A stretch of 64,000 nt of DNA from Takakia lepidozioides. Taxonomy: Eukaryota > Plantae > Bryophyta. Made by a program: the position numbers and the translations under genes. Below are positions 1 through 49,534 of this stretch, in pieces. Below the pieces are notes generated by a model. That model had not been told where the DNA came from, made no database searches, and was given only the letters and a program-made list of their open reading frames with translations. The DNA is taken from NCBI GenBank assembly GCA_030704615.1, contig CM060732.1:37882001-37946000 (forward strand). The letters are read 5' to 3'. Each line of letters starts with the position of its first letter. The first letter of the stretch is position 1.

Positions 1-1043
1 AGAACGGGTCAAGCGGGGTTTGTCAAAGGAAGGTACATTCTAGACAATATCCTTCCTGCACATGAGGCCTCTTCTTATGCCTCCAAGAATGGTCAAGCCC
101 TCTCACTATGGCACCTGGACTTTGAAAAAGCCTTCGATAAGGTGGACTGGACTTTCCTCTTGGCAGTTCTGAGAAAGACCGGGCTCCCACCCAACTTCTG
201 CCATTGGGTGGAAATTCTCTTGCAGGGTTCAACAAGCAGAGTCTTAATGAATGGCCACCTGTCTAAACCCTCCTCTCTTCATAGATCGGTTCGACAAGGA
301 TGCCCTCTAGCCCCTTTTCTCTTTATGTTTGTGGCAGACACTTTGGGTTACCTTTTGGACTCTGTAGAATAATATGAATTTCTGACTTAATGACAATTTT
401 CAGAACTTTTTAATATCTTTCTCATCAATATAGCCTGCGATACCTTCGATATTGTTGCGGTAGGGCAGTGTTCTTCGATATCTTGTATACAGTCGATAGT
501 CTATCTTGGACTGAATGATAGAAGAGATGGATGAATAATTGTAAATGATGGATGAAGAGCGGTTATTACAGTTATTGAAGCGCCCTGCTATATAATGCGT
601 TCATGAGAAGCAGAATGGGTCAATTGAGCCAGACAGCCGTGACCGGGAGTAGGGAGAGTAGAGTGAGTAGAAGATAGACTATAGAGTTATTCTACAATGG
701 TAGATTTAGTACTGCGTTCTTGCAGTGTTGTGATTTATGAGAAGAAGAAAAATAAATAAATAAAATGCAATTCACTTTGTGTATGTGTGAAGAATGGAGT
801 GATGGAATGAGAATGTGTTTCTGTGTGTAAGAACTGAAGAACCATAATTATATGAGATGGTGAGAATGCGCACAAATGCAACAGATAAGAATTCAATGTG
901 AGAATTAGTTTCTGGTCTATCAAGAGAAATATCGATAGAGAGATATCCAAAGCTCAAGAAGGAGCAGATTAAGGAAACAAAAATAGAAAGAGTCTTCAAT
1001 TGGATTCAGGGTAGGAGTACAATTGTGAAGTAAAATCATTTGC

Positions 1044-1340
1044 ATGGCAGAGAGCAATGGTGAGGGAATAAAGGAAGTGTCAGAGTTGATCACTGGATTA
1101 CCAGACCATTTATCGATAACAATCTTTCAGAAGCTTTGTTGTAGTGATAAAGAAGTATTCTTATTGCAATTGGTCAACAAAGGATGGTATAGGGAGATCT
1201 ACATCTTATACATGAGTTGTTATTGGAAACATAGTTGGTTGCAGAAGTGGTATAGACCATTTAAAGGCTATCATGAACTTATGAGAGAATGGAATCATAA
1301 TTTTGGTGAGGGAAAATCCCTGGAGCGACTGGAGAAATAG
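1044..1340 (+). CDS. Small F-box-motif protein 1 (98 aa)
   Basis: LITGLPDHLSITIFQKL...LQLVNKGWY fits the plant F-box consensus LIPGLPDDL..I..RL...L..V.K.W. It is paralogous to the next ORF. Confidence 0.65.
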   Translation: MAESNGEGIKEVSELITGLPDHLSITIFQKLCCSDKEVFLLQLVNKGWYREIYILYMSCYWKHSWLQKWYRPFKGYHELMREWNHNFGEGKSLERLEK

Positions 1341-1368
1341 AATTGGTGGTGAAGAATGATCATTAACG

Positions 1369-1671
1369 ATGTGTGAAGGAGGACAGCTAGCATATCCTAT
1401 AGAATTAATTATTGGACTGCCTAATAGTTTGTCTCTAGATATCTTTAAAAGACTACAATGTAGTGACAAAGAGATAATCAATCTATGGTCAGTCAGTAAA
1501 GAATGGCATCGGGAGCTGTTGACTTTGTATCAGAGAGATTATTGGAGGAAGAATATAGTGGAGCAATGGTATTTGATTTCAGCCGATGGAGCAGAGTTAA
1601 TAGAAGATGGAGAGAAAATTTATGAATCTGGGAGAGTGATGATCGTGTTAGATGAAGATGACTGTTGGTAA
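1369..1671 (+). CDS. Small F-box-motif protein 2 (100 aa)
   Basis: LIIGLPNSLSLDIFKRL...LWSVSKEWH. It shares CSDKE and YW..W motifs with ORF 1044-1340. Confidence 0.65.
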   Translation: MCEGGQLAYPIELIIGLPNSLSLDIFKRLQCSDKEIINLWSVSKEWHRELLTLYQRDYWRKNIVEQWYLISADGAELIEDGEKIYESGRVMIVLDEDDCW

Positions 1672-8370: not shown

Positions 8371-11062
8371 AATACGATGCTTGAAGATTCTGCTGGAGTT
8401 GTACCAAATGTCACCCTAACACAACCGTTGGTAGGCAAACAATGGCGTAAGCAAAATCGAAACTTACCAGGGGAGAGTATGGGCACTGTAAATGTATGTC
8501 AAGTTGCCAACACCAACACCATGAGGCCTCCCTGCACTCGTGCACACCACCAATGTGCGACCTACTTAGAAAAAGCTCCCCTGCCCATTAGATTGGAACT
8601 ACGAGCTGAAGCTCATGTGACACCAGCCGAAGGAACTGGAGCTACGACACAAGCTGAATGGTTCAGTTTAAGCTGTAGTGACTTTCCACACTCCCGTAAT
8701 GCCGCCAACCCAGCCACGGGGAAGCTGGACTCCTTGGGACAAGACACCATATATCAGAAAAATAAAACGCTGTACAGAGAGCTGGCGTCCATACTCCAGG
8801 AAGACCTCACCCAAGCTCTGAACTATGACAAATGGAAATTGCATTCCGGACTGTCGAATGGCATATCACAATGCATGAGGTCCATACAAGTCGATTTGGC
8901 CCGGGAAAAAAAGAAAGCCAGCGCCACAACTAACTTTTTGTATCTGGGTATGAAAGCCTACTTTATGTGGAAACTAACCTCAACCAGACCCTCCCGCTCT
9001 CGCCATGTGGCAATACTTAATTGTCACTTGATCCATACATTGACACTCTCCTCCAGAACTTCATCCATGATCATTCATCCGCACCGGAGGCCTAATTTAC
9101 ATCCAGTATCCACTTTGAAAACGCCAACCCAACCCACATCTCAATTATGGTACCTTCATACAATACGCCATATGTACACTATACCCCATATGAACACTCC
9201 CTCTATACAATATTATGCTCTACCCGGCCGACCGCTACTCCAATTTTATTTTAGCTCCATACCCAGCCTACGCTGACTCATGCTATCCACACCTTTATAA
9301 TGTGCCACTACCCATGTCAATATCCTAGCCCCAGTAAGATGGCCGTTAAGGTACTCCAAAAAGATTTCCCAACCAACCCATTTCCGATATTTTCTCCAGG
9401 CCATGTATTCAACTGCTACAAGCTCCACTACTCCCTATCCTACCCGACAACCCTCTCCACCATTCCCTAGCCCTGCACTCCATCATACAGGCCGCCAATC
9501 TAATCCCCTCATTCATGGCCCATATGGTCGATATCACCTACACCCAACAAAATCTAAACATTACTACCACCACCCCCCTGCTCTTAATAAACGCATATAT
9601 AAATACGTGCCTCGACCTAATCCTATTACTTGTGGATATTCACCCGAACCCAGGACCGATCACTATTAGTGAAATTATCAGCAACCTATCCACGGATGCA
9701 CAAGACAAGATATGCCTATACTTTCAGCAGCGAAACCATCTCACTCATACGTAGGAGGTTTACTATTTCATGAGCGCATGAGCCCATGAGCCTATGAGCC
9801 TATGAGCTCATGAGCGGGCATCCGCGGAATTGGAATTTTCTTGCCTTTATTGACGGTGTTATGTCCTCTTACCTCGGTAATAGGGTCTGTTCTCCTGGTC
9901 CAGGATGCGGAATGAGGTATTTTCGGCGCCGTTATTCCCAAGAGCAGTGTGCTAAAATGGTGTTTTGAAGACATTCCACCGGGGTATTTTGGCACCGAAA
10001 TTACCTCTTAAATGTGATATAGTGCGGTATTTAATGGCGCGGAAACGGGCTATTTGGGTGGCGCCGAAATACCCAAGTGGAATGTGCTGAAGTGCCTTGT
10101 GCTGAAGGCTTCCATCGCGATATTTTGGTAGCAGTAATCCATCCGTGGATTTTTGAGGCCCATATAACGCAGGCGCGCACTGGGCTATTTCGGCGGCCAA
10201 ATTTCCCAATAGGAATGTTAGAAACGGCAGGGTTTTCATGGCTTCAAGTTCTCGTCTCGATGGTGTGCATAAATTACTTGTAGGGTTTTTCACTGAAGTT
10301 TGCGTCTCTTCTGCTTTTATTATACATTTTGGTTGGCGGAAGAAATGTAGGGAATCGGACAAGCAGTCTGAACACAATGATTTTTCAAATCGTCAATATT
10401 TTCATTAAGTGTTTCAGAACTGTACAACAAAAAGATCCAAATGAGACTTTGCTATGGTGAGGATCCGCTATCACTGTCTGATGCATCCCGGCCTCATGCA
10501 AGGATGGCTGCTTCCACCTGCCTCCGAACCTGCACTGCCGCTACCACTGTTACTCTGAGAAGCCCTCCCCTCAAAAATACCATCCTCACCAGCCGGAACT
10601 GTCCACCTGGGTGCGGAAGTGTCCTCAACATTCCCCTCACTCTCGGACGCGGATTCTATTACGAACTTCCCTACTCTGCCTTTCACAATTCTATGTTTGG
10701 CCTCACGCCTCATTATAATTCTCTGCTCATTCCCGTATGTCAATTGCTCTAACCGAGTAGGCCTATCCTCCCTCCTGATGGCTTCTCTGGCACCGTGTCT
10801 GCATAGGCTGGTAGAAAAAAGGGCTTCTGGGGACTCGCGAGAAACGATTTTCTGGCAAAGAATGGCCGATGCGATTCTGTCTCCTCCTCTGCAACAGGGT
10901 CCGATTCGGGCAAGTCTCCCAGCTTCTCCTCGTCGGACGACTCTGCAAGGCTGAGTGTACGCACAAACATAGAATGAAGTACATTAGAGAATTCAAACAG
11001 GGAATCATCGGCAGGTTGCATGGTCCCTACAACCGAAACCAATACACTTACTATGGTGCAAC

Positions 11063-11681
11063 TCACTCGAAGACAGGCATTGGGGGAAGCGGCTTTGGGC
11101 GCCCCTGCATCGAACGAATTTCCTGGACTTCCTCCTCTTCATCTTCCTCCTCCCCTTCCACGTCATCTTCTGCGTTTTTGGGATCCTCGGTCGGAGGCAG
11201 ACGCTGAAGGCCCGCCAAATTGTAATTGTACAAGGCCGTATCCCCCTCAAATGAGAACACAAATCGGTTCGACATCCTTCCCGCCCACATACAGGCACCT
11301 GCGAATTCATACGACACAACCACAGCCAAACTCAAGAATGAGTCGCTTCCTTGCACAAGCAAACATACACAAACGAAAATGGTGTCAATTTCGGTGCCGC
11401 ATTCAATTAACGTTCTCACCTGTATTTGCAGTGACGTTGAGGACCCTGCCTTCAACATCCGTACATGTTTCCATGAGCGTCTGGATGAATGCAGGACTCC
11501 TGGTCCTGCCATACCTCCATGGCTTGCCCGACAAATCACAAAGAATGTCCTTCTCTCCCACATGGTTGAACAGGACGTTATACTCCAGTGGATCAACTGT
11601 GGAATCAACAAGTCTTCCTGCTTCACGTAATTTGAATTTCAAATGTTCCTTCACGAAGCAAAATGCCTGAAAGATAAGAGT
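11063..11681 (-). pseudogene. C-terminal half of a beta-class N4-C/N6-A methyltransferase-like gene (exons 11681-11420, 11298-11063)
   Basis: The spliced product reads ...PWRYGRTRSPAFIQTLMETCTDVEGRVLNVTANTG|ACMWAGRMSNRFVFSFEGD (motifs X, I, II-like). AG/GT sites fall at the same codon positions as in 51627-52650. No catalytic motif IV exon was seen. Confidence 0.65.
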
Positions 11682-12767
11682 CTGCAGAGAAGGAAATGTC
11701 CTGGAGGTTTTGCTCCTCCGCAAGCTCCAGCAGGTTCTGATCGTCGCCAAGTCGTACCACGTTGTCGTCCTCTCCTTCTGTCAGCTCAATGGGCCGCCCT
11801 TCTGCAGATCCAACTCCCACATCTCCAGCGGTCTCCACCGCATCTGTGTTTTTTGAAATTGACTGCAAACCCAATATCTCCGCTTCCAGTCTCCCTAGGG
11901 GTTTTACTGGCGAAGCCATGGGCTCATTCTGCTTCCTCGGCTTCCGAACTCTAGGTGGGCTTTTCTGAGGCGATATCTGAGGTGTTGAATGAGGACTCGT
12001 CTGCCTCAATGCACTTCCACCTTGCGAGCGCAGCACCCAGGCAGGAGTATCCAAAGTTGACTGTGTTGCCTCGCCCCCCTGCGATCCCTCCCCAGCTCCC
12101 ATGTTCAAACAAACAGGAAAACATGAGACACTGCACGCAAAAAAAAAGGTGTAAAAGGAATATTGCGTATGGAGTGCTTCACATCCGCAAAGCACGAATC
12201 TCTCACTGGTGGGCGATCCGAGTCTCCGGATAACGAGGTCTGCATTTCATGCATGAGACGGAGCTTAAGTCCTGTCGTCGGCGGCTTCCCAAAATCCCGC
12301 GTCCTCCTTCTCTTTGCCGGAGTCGCCTGACCTTCCACAAACTTTATGCTACCACTATGCCGCATAAGGAGAGGAAACGCAGGAGAATGTCACTGCAGAA
12401 GGGCAAGGAGCGAGAGAGCGAAGCGGTGGAACATACAACCACTATGCACGAGCAGATGTGTAAGCAGCCACGTCTCCCGAAGCGTTGCCACCGTCCACCA
12501 CTTTCTGCCGTATGGGTGATGAAGAGATTGTGACCCCTGACACGTTCGCACGGATGAAGTCGACTGGAACACGACGCGTGCCAGTTCCGACCACCAGTAC
12601 AAGACGGTTTATCCGAATTGCGGCTCCGAAATACCTTCCGTTCACCGGATGTTGTTCCCGGAGCAGCCGGCATTGAATGAAATATCCGCACATCATGAAA
12701 CCCAACCGCCATGAAAATCCCCTGCCTATGACATTCAACAGTCAGGTCGGTACGTTTCATCAGCGGA

Positions 12768-14068
12768 CGGATGAATTTCGGCGCCGCAATTCATCGCTTC
12801 CCAAGTCCTCATTCGTCATGAGCAAACCTGTCAGTGGGATATCGGAGCCGGAATTAATTCCGGGATAGTGGAAACGGCTGCACTTGGGCACATTTCATCC
12901 ATATTTCGGCGCCGAAATTCATTACGAATATCTCCGTCCGCGCGTAGATGAGGTGAAATCATCCATATTTCGGCGCCGAAATTCATCCAGAGCGAAGACT
13001 AAATCGGCACCATGCTATGCTTTGCCGCCATCATTGCCCCTGACGGATGTTGTCCATGCCTGTTGGACTTGCCATTTCTGGACATTTAACTATAATTTCG
13101 GCACCGAAATTATACTTTATGTGCGGCAACGTCCCATGTGAAAAAGACCACTTAATGGATACTGTCGGTTTCAAATGAAAAAAACGGCTCAAATGCAATT
13201 AATTTTGACAGAAGGGGTTCAATATGCCGATTTCTCCATTAAATGCAGAATATTCCTATTATCTTCGTCGGAACGGGGTATTTCCAACGATTTACGGAAA
13301 ATTATATCATCCAGAAGCAAAAAGTAAATGTCGGGTTTGGACGAATTTCGGCGCCGAAATTCATCCGTCGCATAGCAAATGTAATATTAGAGTTACTCAT
13401 TGCGGATAGTAAGGATGAATTTCGGCGCCGAAATTCATCCATTTCAAAGAAAAATAAATATTGGAGGGAGGGCATTGGATGAATTTCGGCTCCGAAATCC
13501 GGCGTTCAAACCCTGAAAAGAATTTGGAGGGATGAAGTCGGTTGAATTTCGGCGCCGAAATTCATTGCTCGCGAAGAAAAAGGAAAATTAGAAGGGAGTA
13601 CTTGGATGAGATTCGGCGCCGAAGTTCATCTGTCGCAAAAAAAAAAAAAAAAAAAAAAAAAAACTTCAGATGAATTTCGGCACCGAAATCCATCCGCAGG
13701 GCAGCAGAATTAGGGTCGGAAAAGGAGATGAAGAATGAATTTCGGCGCCGAAATACATCCATTCTGCCGATTCAGGATTACTGTCATTTGGATGTCGGCA
13801 CCGATATCCGGACACGTGGTGAATCACGACTGTAATCAGGAACACATTCATCCGTATTTTGGCATCCAAATTCAACCCTCATGTGCAGAAACAATTTGAT
13901 GAAGAAGATGTTCATCCGAATTTCGGCACCGAAATCCATCCGTTGGGTGCTTGGTCAGTTTCATGAGGTGAACAAATTACTATTTCTGTCGCCGGAATTC
14001 ATCCCCTGGCTTCCAAAGTTGTTACATGACAGAGATGTTCATCTAGATTTTGGTGCCGAAATTCATGG
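12768..14068. repeat. Phased array of ~16 palindromes, consensus GGATGAATTTCGGCGCCGAAATTCATCC, period ~62-66 bp
   Basis: A perfect 28-bp palindrome lies at 13413-13440, with variants at ~13340, 13477, 13541, 13603, 13669, 13735, 13790, 13850, 13912, 13985, 14045 and four more in 12768-13112. Confidence 0.9.
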
Positions 14069-14186
14069 GAAGGCCTGATTTATTGTAGCCCAAGTGGTTG
14101 TACATTACAATTCAGGCACCAAATATCCGATGTGAACTTCCTGTTGTCGTCCGTTTTTGTAACGTACGAGAAGCTCTTCGCCCCGC

Positions 14187-16760
14187 ATGCCGGTGGGTAA
14201 CCCCGCAGCTTGGCCCACCCATTGGTGGGGGAAACTGAAAAGACGGCGGCCACCAACAAAGGCGAACGACACCAGGATGGCCAACGCTCTTGCAATACCC
14301 TGCATAGTGCAAGGTTGCAGAGGTGTTCCTCACCCCGGGATGGGGCGTATATTTCAGTTGTCAACAGCCGGGTCTGATGCGCGCAGTGTCGTGTATACAA
14401 TCACGGTTTCACAGTACCCAGCTTGCAACTGTGAGGACTTCTGTAGTGTGAAAAGAAGGGGGCATAAATCCCCCTTCTAGTTAACTCCTAAATTGTTCCT
14501 TACCCAAATACACACTTACTCACACCACACTTAATCACTCCTACTCTATTCATGATCAGAGATTGGGTACCCTCATCCACGCCGCAGCGGAAGAGAAGAC
14601 ATGGACAGGGGTTGAGAAGTTTCTCAAACTTATAACTTGGCTCATTTGTAAACAGGGTATTGCATATGCCAGGGTTCTGTTTCCTAAATGTTTCAAGACA
14701 TACATTATCACAAAATCAGGTTAGCCAGCACCCATGAAGGGCAATCCCTTCATAATACTGGCAGGCTAGTTCCATGAAATACACATCAAGTTTTATGGTC
14801 ACTGGTTCAACTACAACGGGCTCCGGGTTTTTCACACACACATAGCCTCACTTTGATGATCCACCATTCCTCTTTCAAGATCTCTTTTCCCCATCCCTTT
14901 GCATCAAGGACATATGACACTTTCAACCCTCTCAATCCCTTCTTGCAGATACAAAATGGGCTACCAATAATCACCCTCAAGTGATCTTCTCTGTTGCAGC
15001 CCTCAGCCCCTGCATGCTTCTAAGTAATCATGCAATCAGCAGCCAACAGGTTTACTTCTACCTGATTCATTCTCTCTGAAAAATGCTACTTCCTAACCTA
15101 ATTATATGCATGTTGCCCTCATTGTAAGTCATGGGCACTTCTTCTTTACTCAACCTCATTCACATCCGCCCAAAATAGGAAGCATCCTTTGTTTAAGAAC
15201 TGACTTCCCAACTTCTTGCAGCACTCCACACAACTTCCACCCTGCCTCACTTTCTCTCTACCACCAGGACTGGTATGAATTCCAGAAGTCTCCATTCCAT
15301 TTGCCAAAATCTTTTTCTATCTCCCTCATTTCCATTGAGAGTATCTCTACCAGAATTCCATAGCAACTATCCCTAAGTAAGAGAAGGTCCTTGTATCTAT
15401 CAACTTAGCTCTCTTATACTCCAGCTGAAGCGGTGGGATCGCCTGCCTGAAATGGCACCTCACCATCTCTGTCAGCAGCTCCCCTAACTCCTTTTGTCGT
15501 TTGAATGCCACGTTGTAAAAACAAAGATCTATGCATGTCAGATCCTGTCATTGCTATGCCACTCCACCTTCAGATATTTCGTCGATTCAAGCGTTCCGTG
15601 AGTCTTGACAGCTCTGTTTCAACCTATGGCAGTAACCTTGTTGCTTGCCAACTAACTACCCTATCCTACCATCTCTGCTAATCTACCCTAAGATCTGATG
15701 TGATAACAAGAAGACAGTCATTATCTGAAAGCTTCATGCTCTACATATTTCACTCTTTGCTTCTTTATTTACAGATAACCTGTATCACTGTCCACAAGCC
15801 AATGCCCTCATTCTGGCGATTGCACCATTTCACAAGTGGTCAAGTCAGTAATCCCATCTCTGCCCTTGATCTGGCAGCAATTGCTTCTCCACAAGTGCAG
15901 CTTTCTATAATTGCACATGAATGCAATGGCGGCGGTATCAGTTTGCACACCCTACCTCTGGCAGATGCCCGTCATGATGGAGCTGCTCCATCATCTTAAC
16001 TAGCCTTTGATCAAGTCTGCAACCCCACCTTCCTATTCCCTGGCAGCAGGTTGTTTCCCTTGCAGGTTCATCCTCCTTGTCATCGTGGTTATGAGAGTAA
16101 CGACGGCACTGCTGCCCCTCCACCGAGCTGCTTTCCCCGCAACTCCTACACCTTCAGCGGTCAAATCACAGGAAGCACCACCTCTATGCCTTCATTACTT
16201 CTGTCAGTAGTACATGATATTACTTCCCTTGCCCTTGATGAATCGTCCTGCAACACTCCCTCTCTTCAAAGCCATGAAACGATTACTGCACTGCCTCCCT
16301 TCTCCTGGCTTGAGCAAAATTACCTAGCTGTTCCCTGCACGATTACCCTCCAGCAAGCCCTAAGCTTCCTCGACCCGCGTTTCTACGGTAATCACCAGCG
16401 ATGAAAGCCATTCATCCTATGGATGAAAAGGCGTATTTCATGACTTAGCCACATTTTGTCCTGGCAGAGCAATAGCATAGTGTGCCCATGGAATTACCTG
16501 TAGGCATGGATAGTTCCCTCCCGTTATTAGTACCAGGGCACTCCCTTTGTAGTAATGCCGGATCCTGATGCCAAGCAAAATTTCCATGTTACTCCCCTGC
16601 ATTCACACTACACTTCCTTGTTATGGAATCGAAGAATTCAGCATACGTCCCCTGCAAACACCTTTATTACTTTTTTCTGAAGCGCATGAGTTGCATATCC
16701 GCAGTGGACGTCTTCATCCATGGTCCAACACTGAGTTTCAACGAGCTGCACAAGGCCCTA
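14187..16760 (+). pseudogene. SWIM zinc-finger ORF of the MULE, split by solo LTR 14442-16612
   Basis: After LTR excision it reads YTITVSQYPACNCEDFLVMESKNSAYVPCKHLYY (CxC-xn-CxH). It is homologous to ORFs at 24640-25050 and 34820-35265. Confidence 0.8.
14442..16612. mobile_element. Solo LTR, TGTAGTGTGAA family, copy 1
   Basis: Termini TGTAGTGTGAA...TTCACACTACA with a 4-bp TSD CTTC. It is homologous to 28269-30535. Confidence 0.9.
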
Positions 16761-17469
16761 CGGCAGGATACTGGTCGGACTGCTTGACATTCCACATTCG
16801 GGAAGGAGAAAGTGGCAATTATATTACATTCATCTTCTTGCACCCTATTTTTTTGTGAGGAATTATACACTTGGTGGTGCCGCATCGCCATGGCTACATG
16901 TGAATTTCGGTGCCGCAATACATGAGAATGTGGTTTTTGGCCATGAATGACATGCGCATGCTTTTTTTATTTGGTTGTCTACAAATGGATCCGAGTAAAG
17001 CATACATTGTGTGGAGATTAACGGGCATTGAGGCCTATTTCAGCGTCGTTTATGGTCTGTATACTGCATAGTGCTTGTTTGTTACTGCTCTTCATTCAAT
17101 TTGTAGTGATTTCGCAGCCCATCCTGGCGTTTTCGTCCACCTTTATGAGAAGACTCCAATTTGCTACAAATGCATTGTTACTGTTCTGCAAATGTGATGC
17201 CTTTACAAGATTGCTAGTTCTGTGTCCCAGTGGGAAGGGTCCTACTGCACATTCCAGCATTTGCATACTACACCTTGTGCAAACAACAATCCATACGACA
17301 AAGGACACGTCCCAGCATACTGGCAGTGAATTGCAAAAAACCTTAACAGAAGATTATCCAAGCATGTATATTCCCCATATGGCATAGGGAAGCTGCTTGA
17401 TTTCTGAATGAAATTGTATGTGCCATGAGTGTCGGCGAGTCGAAACATGTCTACTCTAGCATGCAAGAC

Positions 17470-18021
17470 CTATGGTCCCCTCGCCCAAGAAGAAGGAACT
17501 CTAACTAGCCTCTCAAGGACCTCCTGAGTGACCGGGTGCCTATATTTGAACAAAATATCAGTGGTTTCTGTCGCCCGGTTGAAACTAACGAGGATGTCGT
17601 GTTTATCGATAGCGCCCCCTTGGTAGAAGGACATTTTCATAGTGGGCCCTGTGTTCCCCTCCTCCTCATCCTCATAACTGAAGAGAATGTCCCCACTTTC
17701 CGAGCCAGTCCGTCCACGCGTAAAGTTTTCACCTATGCACTCATCATACGTCCACTTGCAACAATTCCAACGATACAGCAACGCTGTGCGTGATCTGTTC
17801 GGCTCCCACTCATGCGGAAAGTCCAGGTCCATGATGCGTAGGAACCACCTGCTCCCCAGCCGGGGTCCAGGAGAATCGTGCAATCCTGGAAGAAACTCCA
17901 TTGCTCTCAGCTGGACAAGTCGAGGATCGTCCCTGTAAACATCCAGGAAAACAATGATGTCGTGTGCTTTCGGGAAAATGACTCCCGTCTGGCGTCGATA
18001 GATGTGATTCGGGCACGACAT
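17470..18021 (-). CDS. Uncharacterised intronless 183-aa ORF carried by the MULE
   Basis: Uninterrupted ORF from the ATG at 18021 with globular-protein-like composition. No family was recognised. Confidence 0.45.
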   Translation of the reverse strand: MSCPNHIYRRQTGVIFPKAHDIIVFLDVYRDDPRLVQLRAMEFLPGLHDSPGPRLGSRWFLRIMDLDFPHEWEPNRSRTALLYRWNCCKWTYDECIGENFTRGRTGSESGDILFSYEDEEEGNTGPTMKMSFYQGGAIDKHDILVSFNRATETTDILFKYRHPVTQEVLERLVRVPSSWARGP

Positions 18022-18139
18022 GGCCTCACGACATAGCACGAACTCAAAGCAAGGAGGAGATGGGCACAACAGAGAAGAGTGAAGAGCAAAATGAGAGCAA
18101 GGCCTCCCTTACCGTAAGGTGGGTATTTGCTCTCCGGAG

Positions 18140-18612
18140 CCCAATTTCGGCGCCGTTATTGGATGGAGTGCGGAAGCTTCAACCGAGAATTTTGTTTCCG
18201 CAGGTCAATTTCGGCACCGTTATTGGTTGCAATCCCCAGCCTTCAGCCGGGTATTTGGTTTCCGGACCCAATTTCGGCGCCGTTATCGACTGCACTCCGG
18301 TGGCTTCAGCCGAGTATTTGGTTTCCGGGGCCCATTTCGGCGCCGTTATCGCCTGCACTCCGGAGGATGCAGCCGGGTATTTGGTTGGTGGAGCCCAATT
18401 ACTTTCACCGTTGTTGGCTTCACTCCCGAGCCTTCAGCCGGCTATTTCTTTTCCTGCGCCCAATTACGGCGCCGTTATACCCAACCATCTTGCACTTCTG
18501 CAACAGTACTATCCACGGTTATAGGTCGCCATTGCGTTTTCGGAGTCTGCAAACCCGGATCCTAATTCCGCTTGCGTCTCTGCCTCAGGGATAATTTCGG
18601 TGCCGTTATTGC
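18140..18612. repeat. Subterminal ~63-bp tandem array with AATTTCGGCGCCGTTAT core
   Basis: Cores at ~18143, 18207, 18270, 18333, 18397, 18461 and 18592. Related cores also occur at 9920-10200 near the other end of the element. Confidence 0.85.
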
Positions 18613-19599
18613 CCAGAATTCAGTTTTTCTATGACCTGGCCTGGCGGTCCATGAGCCTGGGCTCCAAGTCATGAGCGTACACTGGTACTCATGAGCGGAG
18701 TGCTTCCAGCATGAGCGCGGAAATCTTCGATTTTCAATTATTTTATAGTTTTGGGCCCGAAAAAAATCTGCCGAAATTTGAAGTGTGTTACTTTGCGGCT
18801 CATGGGTGAGCCATGCCCACTCATGAGCTCATGGAATAGCAACCCCCCATACGTAGCTACCATCACATTCTAGACCACTTCACACCTTTCTTCCCAAACT
18901 GTCAAAACTCCGAATATACACCCACACACCACATTGTAACTTTTGGGCTACCCTCTAGCTGCTACCCAGCACTTACTAAAGCCCTATGCAAACTCAAAAC
19001 TTTTACCGCATCACAGCTCCTTTTCTCCCTTGTCGTCATCATCTCCCCTCTCCCAGAGACATGTTATGGATATCTTTACTCACACTCAATCTCCCAAATC
19101 CGATCCCTCCTACGTCAATTAAAAGAGCTACCTCCGTATCACCACCAATATTTGCCCCCCACTGCTTATCCGAGATCCAGAATTCCCTCAAACTTTTATA
19201 CTCTCAAACCGGGGTTGTACATAATATCCTAGGGGACCACCTAGCAACGGTCACCACACCCGACCAAGACCACCAGCTCATTAACAAATTCCCCTTCCTC
19301 TCCACGGATATCCTGGCCATCACACTTAACGCAATTACCCCGATACCCGGCTATGATCCCCCAACTGTTAGATCCCATACCGAGGATCCCTCACCTGCCC
19401 CCCCCCCCCCCCCGCCCAGCCACACTCCCACCACCCCAGAGGCTTGCTCCAAGGCACTTACTATCACTTCATGGAACGTGGGCTCTCTAACAACCGGCAT
19501 ACAAAGTTTGCTCCACCTTTTCTCCAACACTTCACAACCACATATTTTCCTCTTGCAAGAAACCAAGCTGCACACCAACAATACCAGCAGCTCTTAGAA

Positions 19600-20830
19600 A
19601 ATCAGAATGACAACTCCCCCACACCAAAAAACTCCACGGTGTTGCTCCTGCAAAGACACCCCAGCCCAAACCCGGACTGACTCTTGCCTCCACCTACGGA
19701 AAGGTCTTGGCCTAATGAGAGGGTGGAAAAACTACGAGGAAGAGAAGCTAAAGCAATGCCTAACCCCAGCATGCCCTCATCCCAACACTCTTCCTCTCCT
19801 CTCTTCTCTCACTTGCATGACCATGGGAATATCATGAAGATACTCCTCAAATCGCCCTCCACGAGCTTCGACATTTGGCCTTCAAGACCACATGTCAGTC
19901 CTCAGGCAGTCCACCAGTGCCTCCACGAGTTAGCATAGGCCGTCCATATGTCAACACGGGCCACCACAGACCAGCACAGGCCCACACAGATCACTGGTCA
20001 CAGCCGTCACAACCCCATACAAGCCACCGGTCACAGCCTGTCACAGCCCCTCACAGCCCCCAAGGCCACAGGTCACAGCCCGTCACAACCCCAAAGGCCA
20101 CATGGCACAGCCTATCACAGCCCCTCACGGCCCATCACAGCCTGTCACAGTCCATCACAGCCCCACAGGCCACAGGCCACAGTTTGTCACAGCCTGTCAC
20201 AGCCCCATCCATGGCCACTCATGGCAGTTTAGCCATTTCTCCAAGGGGTTTAGCCACGCCAAGCTAGGGTTTGTGTCTCTTGGACTCTAGGCTTCTTTGC
20301 ACCGAGCTATGGCGGTTGTGAGGAAATCAGCAAGGTATTCTTGTTCTTTATGGCTCCCACACACCCCCAATAGTAGCTCTAATTCCAAAGGAAGATGCTT
20401 GCAACCAAAACTAAGTGCACAAGCTTCCTTTTAACTCACAAAACAACGCCGTTGATCCCTATGGCGACTAACCAAACATGGCTGATTTCCAACCCTTGTA
20501 GGCACTCATTCACGCATTTTTCTTGACCATAGCACGCCCCTTCGCACCTAATCCAGCTCCTGCACTTGCTGCTTCAAGAGTTGTGTTCCCTTCAAGCTTG
20601 AAGTTGAAACCCCAACTCACATATGCCCTACAAGTGCTTTTCTTTCACCCCAAGTGAAAACCAGCCCTAGCCCTTCCATTCTAGCTCTCTAAAGCTAGAA
20701 AACAAGAGCCTCAATGGGCTGAAGGCATGCTCCACACATGCCCCACTCTCACCATAAGAGAATCAGCTCCTTTGCTTCCTTTCTTGCACCCACAAACCTG
20801 AAAATACAAGCTTCAGCGGGCTGAAAGCAT
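19600..20830 (-). mobile_element. LTR-retrotransposon leader fragment with a (CACAGCC)n-type tract at 19960-20215
   Basis: 19615-19695 resembles 43210-43290 of the DNMT-bearing Gypsy (CCCCACACCAAAA...CCCAGCCCAAA..CCGGACTGACT). The tract is degenerate CACAGCC repeats. Confidence 0.5.
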
Positions 20831-23785
20831 TGTCAAGTTAAATAAGCACAGTGTGAAAACAACTAGAATAAAGCTAGTTATTTGTATTTAACACTTGGAT
20901 TTAGGTCAAGTGTTAAATCAGGTGTGAAGTTTAGTTTGACACCTGAACCGCCTTATCTTCACGAGAGCGGCAGTCGCGCAGCTCATCTCTCTCGAGTTGA
21001 GCCTGCGCGACCGAGCTCCTGCATCGTTTAGGACTGAGTGTGCTTATGATGGGAGTATAGGTTGTTGTGGGGTGGAGTCCCCATAGCTTGGGGTGCCCCT
21101 GGCTCGACTTCTGTTTTATTGAGTGATAGCGATGGATTTCATGTTGTTTCTGGTGTGAACAGTGTGTCTCTTAGCTTGTTCTATCACTCGAGAGAGATGA
21201 GTTTGCATCTGTGAGTGCAAGATGTGAGCTTAATTAGTTTTTAGCACTTGTGGGTTTTGTGTGAAGATGAGAGAGAAACACGAGGGTGCAATGGCAAGTT
21301 AGGCTTCTGTGTGTTGAAAGCGGTAACACGAAAGTGCATGGGTATTCTCCCTTTATAACGGTCACTGGCTGAGTGGCAGATTGAGAGCCGAGCATGGTGA
21401 AACGATCAGCATTATTGTTGTCTCGCAAGGCTGGGATGCAAGCCTTCATTGTCTTGGTGGTTAGAAGCGGAGGTGCAGCTGGTTACGCGAGTAGGTGGAC
21501 CGTGGTCTTCAACTTCAGCTGCAGAGATAAAAATACCATGCTATAGGTAATTCCTGAGCAGACTGATGGTTTCAGACCTGCACATAGTGAGCAGCCAAGG
21601 TGTTGGACTGGTTGATGGGCTCATGTCTACAAGTCGTCGTGCCAATGTTATATCGGTACTGATGACAAACGATTTGGTGAAGTTGTTCATGGCATATATC
21701 ATGGTGTGCAATCAGTAAAGGCCGAGTTGAGAAGTTGGCTGGCTATCGTTGGTTTTCTTGGTCAGCGAGCAGGGACAGGCTGGCATGAAGGCAAATTGTG
21801 CCGTCGTTGGCTTTCATGTGGAATAGTTACAGCAGAACCGGTGGGAATATTTGTAGTCAAATAAGATCAACAAGCAAGTGAGGCTTGGTGATTATGCTTG
21901 AGGAATTCGATCTTGGACTTGGACGGGTCTGTAATAATTTTTATAAAAAATCGAGCATGGATGAACTGGCCAAGTGGCGATGGTGCTGTCCTCGATTAGC
22001 TGTGGATTGCAATAGGACAAGGAAAGCAAGAATAAGGTGATGAAGGGGTGCAGACAACAACACCTAGTTCGGTTAAGGTCTCCAGGCCTCTTTGCATCCA
22101 TCAACTGTGTGGCTAGAGCCCATAAAGCTTGACTATAGCTGATGTTTTGTTAGAAGATATGGCTCGTAGCCTGCAGAAAACACAAATAACATTGCCATCC
22201 ACCACTGGGACTGCATGCTAGAAAGCCATGGAGGCGATGGCACCTGCTGTGTAGTTGCCAGTGCAGAAGAGGTTGAGGGAGAAGCCATGAAGCAGCGTCA
22301 GCCACGGTAGTTTGATCATCATCCTTCAACAAGTCGCTACATTCAGTTTCAGGCACTGCAGCAACGAAGTTGTTAACGCGGGCCTCTTTTACAACATTCG
22401 GACACTCAAAGAAATGAGTGACTGATACATGCTCATGCCGACAGGCAAGTGAGTTGGCTGAATGGATATCTGTGTCGCCTGAAACGCAAAGTGCAGCTAC
22501 ATCGTCCTTACAAGTGACAACGGCTTGAGCTAGCCCACACACCTCGCACATCCACACACGCCAGCTTGTTTATGCCATGCACCTTGTTATCGCAACCTAC
22601 ACACAAAAATGCTGCATCTGCCCTACAGTACATAGCCATGCTTGACGCATGACAAGACGTGTCTATGGTAGCCAGGCTTCCTGAACGAGGGAGAAGGACG
22701 CCGGTGCACGTTTGAGGACAGACAATCCCTGCACAACAACTCCCGAAGTTGAAGATTTCTCCAAAGAACGAGCAGCAATTGCCATAGTTACCAAAACGGC
22801 TGGTACAGTTGTAACGACCATGCTTGCAAGATCGCATCTCGGATTTAACGAAACAGGTTCGGGATGAGCTGACTCCCTTGTCATTCCTTCCAGGATTCTT
22901 GCTGTGAGTGCGATCTTCACATTCTATAAGGGAGGCCGGACGGAGTGGATCGTAGCCCAAGATATTTTCGTGCTGGGAGCTCAAAAATGTTGTTTATAGT
23001 GCAGAACTTAGAATTCGCAGGGAACCAGGGAACAGGGAACCAAGACGGATTATTGGAAATAGATTTTTCATTTGAATGACATATATTATGTTTAAAGAGC
23101 CTGTTTGGCCATAACTTTGTCATACAAAGGCTGTTTGACCTCAAATTTGCGCGAAGACCTGCAGATTGTGGAAATCTACATACTCAGACCTGGTTTTAGT
23201 TTTTTGGACTCTGCTAAAAATCTATGGAATTTTTTTGAGTGTGAGTGTGTGGATGCTATGAAAGATCCACAACTCTGTTTCAGCTAGAACCTGTTGTGGT
23301 CTACATGAGAGACAAGTTTGTGGATGTCCTCCTTGTATGGCTGGGGGCAATGAGGACGTAATTGAAGGGCATGTCTCTTCTCTTAGCCTGTGCACACACG
23401 GAGACAAGATTTATGTTTCTCAAGGAACTCGGACTGATTTGAGTGGAGAGCAGTTGGACGAGTTGATTGCATACTGGGAGTCAGGCATTAGCAATAGACA
23501 ACAAACTGCTATAGTTGGCGTTGAGGGCCTCAATATTGCTTTGGCCAGTCAGAACTCTGTTGGAGCAAGCAGTTCTGCAGCTGTAGATGACCAAAGTGGG
23601 TGAAAGCTAGGCTTGGAACACAGCCAAAGACAGCCCCAGGGACCAAGGTGTTCAGCCACAAGGCCGTGGTGTACTGGAGCAGAGGAGCAGGAGCTGCACA
23701 AGTTTGTGCAATCAGACATGGTTGCAGCCGGATACGCTCTACACAAGGCAACTACGAGCGGGGGTTCATTAGCAATGACAAGTTA
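20831..23785 (+). mobile_element. 5' end of a second copy of the DNMT-Gypsy family (LTR start, variable cassette, accessory ORF), truncated
   Basis: 20831-21220 (TGTCAAGTTAAATAAGCACAG...) is the reverse complement of ~46555-46944. 23050-23780 matches ~43690-44400, including the MAGGNEDVIEG ORF, which is frameshifted here near 23590. Confidence 0.9.
22270..22670 (-). pseudogene. Captured CONSTANS-like double B-box fragment
   Basis: [32 protein letters not shown] and [44 protein letters not shown]. There is a frameshift between the B-boxes and no CCT domain was seen. Confidence 0.9.
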
Positions 23786-23827: not shown

Positions 23828-25052
23828 GAGGTTAGCTATTTCATGAGCATGAGCGGCATGAGCGGCATGAGCAGAGTAGTAAGACAATCGGTTTTCATGA
23901 GCAGAAGTACAAATTTCGAAAATAAAAAACAATAAAAACAATAATTTAATGCAATGTGTCACGAAAAACAAATATATTATTCGGCCTCTTGAAGGGAAAA
24001 TTGTAGTTTTGACAGTTGTGCTCATGATATTTCGTCTTCCGCTCATGCCAATTCCCAGCGACATGTGCAAATATGGCGCCGAATTTCGCGGTAATAGGGT
24101 CCGTAACCTGAAAAAACGGCGACGTATTTTGCGGTAATAGGTCTCTCTGGCGAAAAATGGTGCCGAATCCGCGGCTATAGGTCCCCTCATGACAGGTAAT
24201 TCGGCGCCATTTTTCCAGTGCATGTTCGGACCTTAGCCAGTTTTCGGCGCAAATAGGGAAATTCGCGCCATTTTTCCAGACACTGACCAGTGCATGTTGG
24301 GACTTGGCCAGTTTTCGGCCCAAAAAAGAGAAATTCGGCGCCATTTTTCAGACACGGTACCATTGCATGTTGGAACTTAGCCACGTTTCGGCCCCCAAAA
24401 AAAGAGAGAAATTCGGACGCCATTTTCCCAGACACATGGTACCAGTGCATGTTGGGACTTAGCAGTTTGCGGCCCAAAAGAGAAATTCGGCGCCATTTTT
24501 CCAGAAATGGCCCCACAACTGCTTCTGTTGGATCTCAGTTTGAATGGAATATTGCTCATTCCAGGAGTTTTGGGGTGCATTTCATTACACTGCAAAAAAA
24601 AGTCTGATTGATACAGCAAATGCAATTGAAAATATCCATATGGAGGATTCCCTTTGCCCCATCAATGATCTCTGGAATCCCTAAGGAGGAGTTTGTGCAG
24701 CTCGTTCACGCTCAACGCCGGTGCATGAAAATCAATAGTCACGTTCATCTCAACATCTTCAGGTAAATGTAATGATGTTTGCAAGGATATAATAATTCGA
24801 ACCCTTCTTTGCTTCCATCACCGAGAAGTCCGTACAATGCAAGTCGGCTCCACTCCAATTGTAATTGTGTATACATCGTCGCGTACAGCCGAGCCGGCCG
24901 TTGCCATCCGATACACACGCCCAAGGCCGGGTGGGGTACGTCCACGGAGCTCTGAATAGTGCAAGCCATGGAAAAGCAGGATCCGAGTCTCATTCAACTT
25001 ATGGGAGGGTGTCGTCTCTTCACTCTTCGAATCGCATTGTGGGATGTGCAGA
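23828..25052 (-). mobile_element. End of another MULE-family copy (TIR, GGCGCC array, SWIM ORF), running into the gap
   Basis: GAGGTTAGCTATTTCATGAGC at 23828 matches the TIR at 9755. AAATTCGGCGCCATTTTT repeats occupy 24070-24500, and the minus strand reads YPCKHHYIYLK. Confidence 0.8.
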
Positions 25053-25552: not shown

Positions 25553-27680
25553 ATCTCCTATGCCGGAAAGATTACCTCGATATCAGCCTCCAGAAGGCCT
25601 CACTTATCCAGGTAATGATCAACCATCTCCGTCAACCAGAGACAGACCTCGGGCTCGTACACACAGCCCGCCACGAAACTCTCAACGTCAACAAGGTGCT
25701 CACTCACAAAGGGTTGCTACTCAGAAACAGTAAACCGTGAGGACACGGCTTTTTGAGGGAGGAAGGGGTAAATGTTAGAGGACTGTAGGGGACTTAGACA
25801 CTTATACGGGATCTGTAGGGTACCCTTAATTTTTGCACAGACTGAGACAAACAGGAACCTTAGGGGTGACAGCAGCGCACTGTAGAGGGGGGTTACATAG
25901 CCCACACAGCCGTCACAACCCACACAGCCAACACAGCCCGTCACAGTCGTCACAGCCCACACAGCCGTCACAGCCCACACAGCCAACACATCCCGTCACA
26001 GTCGTCACAGCCCACACAGCCGTCACAGCCCACACAGCCCACACAGCCGTCACAGTCGTCACAGCCCACACAGCCCACACAGCCCGTCACAGTCGTCACA
26101 GCAGACACAGCCCACACAGCCAGTCACAACCCGGCACAGCCACACAGCCAGTCACAGCCCGACACAGCCAAACACAGCCAGTCACCGCTTGACACAGCTG
26201 TCACGATAATAGGGAACGAAGAGTAGGACAGGGAACGACTGTGGGGAACAACACCAGTGAAGGGAACATGTTAGTTCACATACGACGGTTAGAGAGGGAA
26301 ACGGTTAGAACCGCGGATAGGAGGATAAAGGGAAGAACGGGGAATGATGAGGGGATCATGATTATTATTATGGGAAGGAGGATTACGGAGTCATACGGGA
26401 GCGGAAGTCGGTGAGCACGATGAAGGAGGAAAGAGGATTAGTAGATGCTTGTTATATGCAAAGCTGTAGGGATATTGTAGAGGAGAATAGAGACACAATG
26501 GCTTCGGCCTGATACCTGATAAATCATAATCTGATACTTATACGATACAATCACACTATGTAGAGAGATCTGAGTGAAGCTGTGGATTGAATGGAGGAGT
26601 GAAGGAAACCGATAAATTGATGAAGCAAACTGATACTTAATTATCAATGGTAAGGTAGCTAAGATGAATGCGGAAAAGGAAACAAATAGGAAACACCCCC
26701 ATGATACACTAGCTGTAGGTCATGACTGATTGTTCTGCGCGGGCTGAGTACTTAGAGATTTCCAACTCTTCTATCTTGGAGTTTCCGCCTCGGATAGCGA
26801 AGGGATGGGTGAGTAAAAGCCGCGCGACAAACATCAACCCAGAAACAAAGAAAGCACGAGATGCCACAATTGCAAGAAAGAGGGACACTGGAAACATGAA
26901 TGTCAGTTGCGAATCAAGCATGAGACAGAATTGGGAAATATGGAAGCCGGACCAAGTATAGCCATAAGTGTGGTAACCCCTGTAGTGGATACTCTTGCGG
27001 TAACCCAAACTCAGGCCAAGAAACAGAAACCTCCAGATAAGGAGATTGAAGAAGAACGGAAACAATATCCAGAAAGTGCAGCATGGCAGGAGGAAAAGAG
27101 CTTACACCAAGAAGTCAGTAAAACCATAGCTCAAATGCAAGAGGGAACCCATATACCTTCTGGAGAGCCAAATCCAAATAAGCAAATCAGACCAACGGTG
27201 AAGACCATGAATACAACCACGGAAACAGAATTGGCCGAAGTAATCTGCCAGACCAAGACCCAAATTACCATTGGACAATTATTAAAAATTGCTCCACATT
27301 GCAAGAAAACTTTATTTTGGGCAATCGAGGCATTGACCCCCACACCAAAACAAAAACCAACACCAGAGGTTTACACGATTAAAACCACAACTATACGACA
27401 AACTCCAGATTACGACGAAGTAGTACCCGTAATACAAGTACATATTGGACGGAAGATGGTAACAAATGTACTCATCGATGGAGGATTAGGAGTGAATATC
27501 ATGACAGAAAAGATGAAGAAGTCATTAGGATTGGGGCACATGGAACCTGCTCCATTCACGGTACGAATGGCTGATCAACGAAAAGTGCAGCCATTAGGGA
27601 TCATCAGACGACTTGCAATGGAAGTAGCAGGACTGGTATACGAAATATCAGTAACCATTCTCAGAATGGAGGAATTTGCT
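25553..27680 (+). mobile_element. Ty3/Gypsy fragment: LTR/leader with CACAGCC tract (25895-26200), then gag end and aspartic protease
   Basis: Protease VLIDGGLGVNIM...VRMADQRKVQPLG is homologous to 33118-33591. The leader 25815-26260 is homologous (inverted) to 35920-36310. Confidence 0.8.
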
Positions 27681-34735: not shown

Positions 34736-35621
34736 ACATATCCGTGCAGCAGGATTTCGAATGGTGCAACGCACAGACATCCCGGCCCACGCATTTCCGG
34801 TTCCTCAGACCTAGCCATTGCAGACTGCTCGGTCCAGTAGAGACGGATTGGACAATTCTGCACATCCCACAATGCGATTCGGAAGAGTGAAGAGACAACA
34901 CCCTCCCAACAAGTTGAATGAGACTCGGATTGCCAATGCTCTTGGGATGGCTTGCACTATTCAGAGCTCCGTGGACGTACCCCCACCCGGCCTTGGGCGT
35001 GTGTATCGGATGGCAATGGCCGGCTCGGCTGTACGCGACGATGTATACCCAATTTACGATTGGAGTAGAGCCGACTTGCAATTGTACGGACTTCTCGTTG
35101 ATGGAAGCAAAGAAGGGTTCGAAGTATTATCCGTGCAAGCATCTGTATTACATTTACCTGAAGAGGTTGAGGATGAACGTGACTATTGATGACTTTATTC
35201 ATGCACCGGCGTTGAGCGTGAACGAGCTGCACAAACTCCTCTTTAGGGATTCCAGAAATCATTGATGGGGCAAAGGGAATCCTCCATATGGATATTTTCA
35301 ATTGCATTTTGCTGTATCAGACTTTTTTTTTGCAGTGTAATGAAATGCACCCCAAAACTCCTGGAATGAGGCAATATTCCATTCAAACTGAGATCTAACA
35401 GAAGCAGTTGTGGGGCCATTTCTGGAAAAATGGCGCCGAATTTCTCTTTTTGGGGCCGAAAACTGGCTAAGTCCCAACATGCACTGGTACCTGTGTCTGG
35501 GAAAATGGCGCCGAATTTCTCTTTTTTGGGCCAAAAACTGGCTAAGTCCCAACATGCACTAGTACCATGTCTGGAAAAATGGCGCCGAATTACCTGTCAT
35601 GAGGGGACCTATAGCCGCGGA
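34736..35621 (+). mobile_element. MULE-family fragment (SWIM ORF plus GGCGCC array), inverted homolog of 24170-25052
   Basis: PTCNCTDFSLMEAKKGSKYYPCKHLYY. AAAATGGCGCCGAATTTC repeats at 35425-35592. Confidence 0.85.
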
Positions 35622-36320
35622 AGTGTCTCTCTACACAGTATGTTTGTATCGATTCAGTATCAGATTAAGATTAATCATGTATCATGCCTATGCCATGGTG
35701 TCTCTATTTTATCTACTGTATAATTTTACAGCTTGCATGAACTAAGCCTCATTCAAGTCATCATCTCCTCTTCACTGTTTCCGCTCTCCGTTACGTCTCC
35801 TCCTCTCCTGAACAAGTCGCCCTCCTCAAGAAGTGATCCCCTTCCTGTTGCCGCTCTGCCTAATCTACCCGCAAGCTGTTCTAGCCACCTAACTAACTAA
35901 CCGTCACCCCTGAAGTAACACGTTCCCTCTACAAATGTCGTTCCCACACAGTCGTTCCCTGCCATTGATAACTGTTCCCCATGCACTGTGACAGGTTGTG
36001 TCAAGCTGTGCCGAGCTGTGACTGGCTGTGTAAAGCTGTGTCGGGTTGTGACTGGCTGTGTCTAGCTGTGATAGACCGTGACGGGCTGTGTAAAGTTGTG
36101 TCGGGCTGTGACTGGCTGTGCGAAGCTGTGTCGGGCTGTGTGAAGCTGTGTCGGATTGTGACTGGATGTGCGAAGCTGTGTCGGGCTGTGATAGACTGTG
36201 ACGGGCTGTGTAAATCTGTGTCCTGCCACCCCTAAGGCTCCTGTTGGTCTCAGTCTGCGCAAAAATTAAGGGTACCCCACAGAACCCATAAAAGCGTCTA
36301 AGTCCCAAGCAGCCCTCTAA
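35622..36320 (-). mobile_element. LTR/leader fragment with GGCTGTG (CACAGCC) tract
   Basis: Reverse-complement homology to 25815-26260 (e.g. GGGTACCCTTAATTTTTGC.CAGACTGAGAC). Confidence 0.75.
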
Positions 36321-38204: not shown

Positions 38205-38860
38205 TGGTGAGAAGGAGGCAAGTGATGCTTGCTTGCTGAACCTGTAGCCCATGGCTAACCAGGGTAACTGAAGGTCCCAATCTCCTAGGTGTCCCTTCTG
38301 CAAGCCATACTTGCGCAAACCCCTCTTTACTGTCTGAACAACTCTCTCTGCCAAGCCATCGGCCTCAGGATGATCCCGAGAAGTGGTGCGGTGGTCTATC
38401 AAGGCCTTGTCACACAAAGCCTGAAACTCCCCCAAGAACTCTCTCCCTTGGTCCGTGAGTACCTCAGCTGGAGCACCGAATCGGCTAAGCACACAATCCA
38501 AGAATGCATACGCAGCTCCCTCACTAGCCTTATCAGGCAATGGAACCAATTCAATCCACTTGGAGAAGTGCTCCACCATCACCAACACGTACTTGTTGTG
38601 GCGCATGGTCAGTGGCAACGGCCCTGCGAAGTCAAGACTCCACCTGTAGCCCAATCCCATGATCGGAAGAGGGTGCAATTGTGGAGTAGGGGCGTTGAAT
38701 GAAGCACGCACCCTGTCACACACCATGCACCTAGCCACAAATTGTTGCACCTCTGTGTGCATACCACGCCACCAATACTGCCCCTGCAGTAGGCTATGGG
38801 TGCGTCGCACCCCAAAATGCCCCAACTCCTCGTGGGCATGCCGCACTAACCGTGCCCGCT
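38205..38860 (-). CDS. Gypsy integrase (HHCC plus DDE core), C-terminally truncated
   Basis: AHEELGHFG...CMVCDR, WSLDF, LTDQG and GLAERVV. Confidence 0.92.
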
Positions 38861-49520: not shown

Positions 49521-49534
49521 TTGGAGAAAACGAG

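Follow-up and report, generated by a model that had tools for sequence, protein, structure and literature searches.

What could keep a palindromic sequence in place at regular intervals while the DNA between its copies diverges is the question raised by a repeat array in a 64,000-nucleotide stretch of DNA (the window). A sequence-only reading had counted about 16 copies of a 28-bp palindrome, recurring every ~62-66 bp and resembling a CRISPR array. The array is real and lies far above chance, as a 20-mer searched at ≤3 mismatches matches 14 sites across the window, of which 13 are in the array and one is at 16902, against none in 100 shuffles. A repeat search recovers 17 copies, 16 within positions 12768-14068 and one at 12613, while the array comprises 19 units (12611-14131) when two weaker units are counted in. 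The 28-mer itself is, however, exact in only 1/19 units (at 13413), with the remaining units carrying 1-11 mismatches to it (17 units scored). The conserved part of the unit is an 18-bp palindromic core, AATTTCGGCGCCGAAATT (inner 16-18 bp), in which the G-G of each half-site is most fixed (38/38 and 36/38) and the central pair least (28/38). Pairwise core identity is 73-77%, short of near-identical direct repeats. The unit-to-unit gaps, in order, are 158, 64, 64, 64, 128, 250, 74, 64, 63, 64, 64, 65, 53, 64, 64, 63, 64 and 63 bp. The proposed recurrence thus stands for 13 of the 18 gaps (63-65 bp), but the remainder (53, 74, 128, 158 and 250 bp) include empty slots (128 and 250 bp) which split the array into two blocks rather than one run. 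Spacers are 35-37 bp long in 13/18 intervals, and the one previously noted as nearly pure poly-A indeed contains 27 A (13637-13663); this is the only part of the array that Tandem Repeats Finder detects.

The spacers, which had been described as mostly dissimilar, are distantly related, with 5/78 pairs exceeding z>3 in direct orientation versus 0/78 in reverse. Because this faint homology occurs in direct orientation only, the units appear to be old tandem duplicates, and their spacers not foreign or acquired DNA. Among nine units compared without gaps, identity is 73% in the cores versus 34% in the spacers and is higher in the core in 36/36 pairs, although each core contains three CpGs; as the cores were picked by motif match, their identity is inflated. 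The period likewise outlasts the spacers: in five contig joints from the same organism, four listed with inserted letters and one further joint of the central array (13581-13733), cores are connected at exactly 64 bp, by arithmetic, across spacers that differ from those of the present copy, with the qualification that these contigs were found through their core match and may derive from element parts missing in the present copy. At copy level, a diverged copy (X6/X7 contigs) shows changes at 6/77 core versus 15/224 non-core bases, and thus no excess conservation of cores at the right end of the array, a part that is already degenerate. Of 12 listed run X1 variants at ≥10%, one falls in a core, with cores making up 27% of the stretch, and this number is too small to judge.

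The array is located within a transposable element, as the Mutator-type context suggested in the sequence-only reading implied (Table 1). The element is inserted in a LINE ORF and is internally deleted. An empty-site LINE contig from the same organism joins position 9707 to 18848, while another copy of the element has a different flank before 9754, and two sister ends show the same 9-nt terminal register, favouring a 9-bp duplication. According to the available text of PMC6446971, target-site duplications of Mutator-like elements (MULEs) measure 8-11 bp and their terminal inverted repeats (TIRs) typically exceed 100 bp, with groups carrying 20-50 bp also listed. The present element combines a 9-bp duplication, TIRs of 21 bp and a SWIM finger. 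SWIM zinc fingers are common in plant MULE transposases. A MULE DDE transposase domain was not found by Pfam among the ORFs scanned in the present copy, which is missing sequence upstream of the SWIM ORF. Assignment to the Mutator-like group, for which the target-site duplication, the termini and the SWIM finger are the grounds, is likely, with duplications of 8-9 bp being shared by other superfamilies.

Table 1. Positions of the element, its core motifs and its genes in the window.
Feature	Position	Strand	Remarks
Mutator-like TIR DNA transposon	9755-18847		9,093 bp; ~6.9 kb without nested solo LTR
Left target-site duplication, CATACGTAG	9746-9754		9 bp; 7-8 bp possible
Right target-site duplication	18848-18856		Empty-site contig and sequence reading
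Left imperfect 21-bp TIR, then short CATGAGC repeats	9755-9815	+	Sequence reading
Right CATGAGC repeats and 21-bp TIR	18650-18847	-	Sequence reading
Left subterminal cores	9914-10208		Scored at 9914, 9980 and 10181; extra GGCGCC at 10060
Amino-methyltransferase-like gene, putative last exon	11063-11298	-	GT-AG intron; matches homolog P0008 by eye
Single core within 121-bp intron	11382-11409		Motif scoring
Amino-methyltransferase-like gene, middle exon	11420-11681	-	Homologs and paralog
S/P-rich open frame, putative N-terminal part of amino-methyltransferase-like gene	11698-12102	-	No family match
Central array, 18-bp palindromic core at 64-bp period	12611-14131		Blocks 12769-13116 and 13339-14131; outlier at 12611
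SWIM-finger ORF, 5' part	14163-14441	+	47% identity to sister copy 34857-35054
Nested solo LTR, TGTAGTG...CACTACA	14442-16611		2.17 kb; splits SWIM finger; no scored core
SWIM-finger ORF, 3' part	16612-16787	+	56% identity to sister copy 35092-35253
Single core between convergent SWIM and 183-aa genes	16898-16925		Motif scoring
Intact 183-aa cargo ORF	17470-18021	-	No usable match
Right subterminal array, asymmetric core variant, 63-64 bp	18121-18615		Alignable spacers

The element is multi-copy. Alignments to the stretch were obtained for 9,352 run X1 contigs, with a summed depth that exceeds the depth of single divergent contigs by a factor of hundreds, although contig depth is not a copy number. 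Sequence present in other copies is missing here at 11697/11698 and 14166-14168. The nested solo LTR is absent from the X1 and X5 contigs, while homologous pieces occur at 28.3-30.5 kb; an assignment of the 14.4-16.6 kb segment to a LINE piece was rejected in favour of this solo LTR.

The 18-bp core is not restricted to the central array. Motif scoring returned 41 matches in the window, 28 in this element, 11 in the arrays of sister elements and two weak ones elsewhere, against 0-7 weak and no strong matches in controls. Eleven further sites within the element lie near both of its ends, in an intron and between genes. The right subterminal array would be younger than the central one, because its spacers can still be aligned. 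None of the 28 matches in the element falls in a putative exon, nor does any fall in the nested LTR. This agrees with the VANC analogy put forward earlier, the motif being confined to non-coding parts of the element as VANC motifs are, although the avoidance of exons is weak once the matches are grouped as five clusters (p 0.12). In sister elements with related ends, a GGCGCC motif akin to the core recurs every 72-75 bp. At 10.5 bp per turn, the off-period gaps of 53, 74 and 158 bp correspond to 5.05, 7.05 and 15.05 helical turns, while the gap of 250 bp is out of phase (three of four in phase, p about 0.07 for the array alone). The sister periods are also near whole helical turns and, as judged from these periods, the spacing shifts by one helical turn between sister families.

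Two sister-element pieces with related TIR and SWIM ORF (23828-25052 and 34857-35621) are 91% identical, and their subterminal arrays repeat GGCGCC every 73-75 bp. The design occurs in a third variant at 54531-55224, between two unassigned minus-strand ORFs, as a GGCGCC-core array of alternating orientation with units 71-73 bp apart (145-bp dimer). The window is eukaryotic and plant-like, with B-box, F-box, LINE, Ty3 and CACTA-type pieces. These include a degenerate double B-box (CONSTANS-like; 22150-22993, minus strand), an F-box fragment (1029-1671, plus strand) and plus-strand CACTA-type transposase pieces split by nested insertions (36966-38130 and 46966-47480; DUF4218, E 1e-34; DUF4216, E 1.5e-7). 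Related 9-10-bp degenerate repeats of the GTCACAGCC type occur at 19965-20207, 25895-26204 and 35985-36222, within larger homologous segments, and are probably part of a retroelement family. An 899-aa ORF on the minus strand (38794-41493), in which Pfam places a C5 DNA methylase domain (E 3e-12) and which has a PCQ motif, sits between a retrotransposon gag piece (41984-42373) and an integrase (38139-38915) and is read from this arrangement as belonging to a DNMT-carrying LTR retrotransposon. Such retrotransposons have been reported in dinoflagellates and charophytes in the available text of PMC5890265, and the present one may extend their known range if the host is a land plant.

The central array lies between a gene resembling amino-methyltransferases and the SWIM-finger gene, in confirmation of the earlier reading. 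Since these genes are divergent and both read away from the array, the array probably makes up the upstream region that they share. The middle exon of the methyltransferase-like gene has eight non-zinc-finger homologs among ten matches (E 1.7e-15 to 1.6e-4); the other two, P0003 and P0007, were dropped as false C2H2 zinc-finger matches. The catalytic exon upstream of it is missing in the present copy (break at 11697/11698). A three-exon paralog is encoded on a different element (51630-52650, plus strand), with 39% identity to the middle exon at 52070-52363, and its first exon scores 0.92 to N6_N4_Mtase clusters (Atlas). This paralog lies upstream of a TIR-like sister end (53572-53592), with no duplication partner for it in the window; a 471-bp tandem repeat (2.7 copies) with a neighbouring duplication of ~560 bp is located upstream of this second gene (48290-50763). 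Pfam returned weak DNA-methyltransferase matches, below cutoff, for 3/9 homologs (E 0.13-0.19) and none for the pieces in the window. PHROGs matches of the homologs were likewise weak (E 0.002-0.08), and a fold search with a methyltransferase fragment modelled at pLDDT 60 gave no matches. At the position aligned by eye with the catalytic (D/S/N)PP(Y/F) motif of amino-methyltransferases, the paralog reads D-I-P-D, so that this motif is found neither here, where the exon is absent, nor in the paralog. The available text of PMC8885841, which also lists the catalytic motifs, gives SPPY as required in rotifer N4CMT, while that of PMC4738411 holds no description of the present methyltransferase group under the terms looked for.

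For the SWIM gene, which lacks sequence at its upstream break (14166-14168), the sister copy at 35092-35253 has a Pfam SWIM match of E 1e-3 (19.1 bits versus a cutoff of 19.6). The 183-aa ORF has no usable match in Pfam, NCBIfam, PHROGs or Atlas, and its structure was modelled at pLDDT 38. Across the ORFs scanned, no DDE transposase, DUF1985/DUF287 or other DNA-binding family was detected. Word-based searches among longer proteins only gave no matches to the methyltransferase exon, to the tail of the SWIM ORF or to alignment A1, and a PDB sequence search with alignment A1 gave chance matches only.

The sequence-only reading had further held that the array keeps its CpGs, but protection of CpGs specific to the array is not supported. 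The CpG observed/expected ratio is 0.91 in the non-core part of the array, 0.80-0.81 in the arms of the element and 0.54 in the window, while TpG or CpA occupies 11/57 core CpG slots, one of these transitions (14051) being private to the present copy. The central CpG of the core is intact in 9/19 units and the two outer ones in 15/19 and 17/19. As CpG retention is element-wide and the core CpGs decay, the kept CpGs do not single out the array. Among 36 differences between the present copy and its family, hand-picked from displayed tables at ≥75% of run X1 depth, 27 are of C-to-T type (10 CG, 10 CHG and 7 CHH), an excess which fits a methylated, decaying copy.

We suggest, with about an even chance of being right, that a dimeric protein encoded by the element family binds the cores, with a function like that of VANDAL/VANC or Spm/TnpA. 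A symmetric site with fixed half-sites, presented on one helix face and found upstream of both genes as well as within an intron and towards the ends, is what such a binder would select. The units would have been multiplied by tandem duplication and the spacers would have drifted, while selection among transposing copies would have retained the inverted half-sites AATTTCGG and CCGAAATT together with a spacing of about six helical turns, so that dimers bound to them would all face the same side of the helix. Candidate binders are the transposase on the SWIM side and an accessory protein; the 183-aa ORF product, or the methyltransferase-fold protein in a binding role, could be this accessory protein. 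Once bound, this protein may keep the shared upstream region open and activate both genes against 5mC silencing by the host, a role modelled on Spm TnpA, the AtMu1 transposase and VANC, while the subterminal cores may help to assemble the transposition complex.

An old neutral 64-bp minisatellite, in which the palindrome persists by self-correction of inverted repeats or by conversion between cores, is an unlikely explanation. The spacers are indeed those of a decayed 64-bp minisatellite, in line with the outcome that the sequence-only reading had named as adverse to itself; their residual homology in direct orientation, the loss of the core in at least four slots, the X6/X7 copy and the right subterminal array, where decay of this unit is less advanced, all favour it. 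The palindrome is, however, clearly over-conserved. Self-correction preserves symmetry but not one particular sequence, yet one core sequence is retained across 28 sites and also among sister families, its arms lack unit-level covariation, and the exact 64-bp spacing persists with different spacers. Furthermore, methylation of the element, with which the C-to-T excess (27/36) is consistent, should make the CpG-rich cores decay sooner than the spacers. The lack of covariation also bears on a hairpin or cruciform scaffold in DNA or RNA, which had been offered earlier alongside a protein-binding role and which we consider very improbable: motif and spacing do outlast the freely drifting spacers, but no covariation is seen within the central array, whether in the core arms (p 0.13) or in the outer arms (p 0.28). 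For the perfect unit a folding energy of -10.8 kcal/mol (z -5.0) was obtained, and the outer arms pooled over all 30 element sites pair more often than permuted ones (62/150, p 0.003); three other units fold weakly (z -0.5 to -2.0), the subterminal and sister motifs are asymmetric, and no Rfam family reaches its gathering score. The CRISPR-like character, with acquired spacers between palindromic repeats of ~28 bp at near-constant spacer length, is effectively refuted by the eukaryotic transposon context, the degenerate repeats, the mutual relatedness of the spacers, the lack of any cas family among 93 ORFs (Pfam) and the lack of an Rfam CRISPR repeat over the array. The external spacer matches that had been proposed as a check amounted, in a search of phages and plasmids, to one phage match driven by poly-A and one 50-bp plasmid match (E 0.03).

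The cores could alternatively be sites for a host transcription factor, amplified by the element as an enhancer of its two genes. E2F-, AP2/ERF- and LBD-type factors, which have GC-rich core motifs, are example candidates. The position of the array between divergent genes is consistent with this, as are putative RNA contigs (X6 and X7, an RNA origin being a guess) that span the right end of the array and continue ~1 kb further towards the SWIM gene. We nevertheless regard it as rather unlikely, since copies of the core are also present close to both termini and within an intron, and since it differs from one sister family to another, a pattern that co-evolution with an element protein fits better than a host factor. 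The core, moreover, does not match the plant E2F consensus by eye, and no E2F sites in transposon minisatellites were found in the open-access literature. In one form of the self-recognition idea of the sequence-only reading, the amino-methyltransferase of the element would write 4mC or 6mA on the arrayed sites, blocking 5mC or flagging self. A methyltransferase-like gene does occur on at least two different elements in the window, the first exon of the paralog resembles N6_N4_Mtase clusters, the homologs have weak DNA-methyltransferase matches (Pfam as above; PHROGs, E about 0.003), and the outer CpGs are largely intact. Against this stand Pfam matches that are all below cutoff, the core CpG transitions, including the private one, and the consideration that a short enzyme site needs neither 18-bp symmetry nor fixed spacing. 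Marking of GGCGCC sites by the methyltransferase thus appears weaker than the binding-site reading, because the catalytic exon is lost, the paralog reads D-I-P-D in place of a PP-aromatic motif, CpG retention is element-wide and the core CpGs decay, and we hold it to be doubtful. In a broader and rather improbable version, a group of plant Mutator-like elements would carry a bacterial-type amino-methyltransferase and phased palindrome arrays as a matched pair, with the enzyme, or a dead-fold reader, occupying or marking the arrays and so shielding the element from 5mC silencing in a manner resembling restriction-modification; the phasing would be six turns in this family and seven in its sisters.

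The combination of a palindrome, fixed spacing with drifted spacers, a one-turn shift in sister elements and methyltransferase-like cargo was not found in listings of the open-access literature. A metagenome pattern scan gave five single matches in contigs of 58-60% GC, with neither an array nor a relative of the element, and the viral and prokaryotic contigs held no related loci, those of viruses also lacking any two-core phased pattern. Sequence-specific anti-silencing by transposons has been characterised mainly in Arabidopsis, and a multi-copy family in another plant offers a candidate site and candidate proteins for testing. If the methyltransferase were the partner, the family would represent DNA transposons that counter silencing by the host with a mark other than 5mC, of which no case was found in the open-access literature.

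Among known systems, CRISPR arrays share the palindromic repeat and similar spacer lengths, with all other tested features failing. The available text of PMC5735166 describes VANC motifs in tandem repeats located upstream of the transposase as well as within introns, and VANDAL/VANC is alike in its Mutator-type element, in a short motif duplicated in tandem in non-coding parts and in the change of motif between sister families. In contrast to the 9-bp asymmetric VANC motif, the present one is a CpG-rich 18-bp palindrome at a fixed 64 bp with drifted spacers, the cargo is methyltransferase-like, and binding is predicted here. As no VANC domains were found (DUF1985/DUF287 being absent by Pfam from the ORFs retained in the present copy), the element does not appear to be a VANDAL/VANC member.

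AtMu1, Spm TnpA and Muta1 likewise have element-specific repeated sites near their ends, which are bound by an element protein with effects on transcription, methylation or excision (10.64898/2026.08.24.746577; PMC5499845; available text). The transposase of AtMu1 both binds the elements of its family and switches them on (10.64898/2026.08.24.746577), while subterminal repeats strengthen transposase binding in Muta1 (PMC5499845). Unlike in these systems, the largest array here is internal, between divergent genes, its cores are separated by ~46-bp linkers rather than by 3-4 bp, and the present copy lacks the transposase core. The methyltransferase-like gene, finally, shares with MpDN4MT1 (10.1101/2021.02.12.428880) and rotifer N4CMT (PMC8885841) a bacterial-type N6_N4 methyltransferase fold in a eukaryote, with weak-to-moderate sequence support here. 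As described in the available text of these sources, the latter two are host genes with a (T)SPPY motif and demonstrated activity, whereas here an intron-containing gene is carried as cargo by a transposon, and the one catalytic exon available, that of the paralog, shows D-I-P-D.
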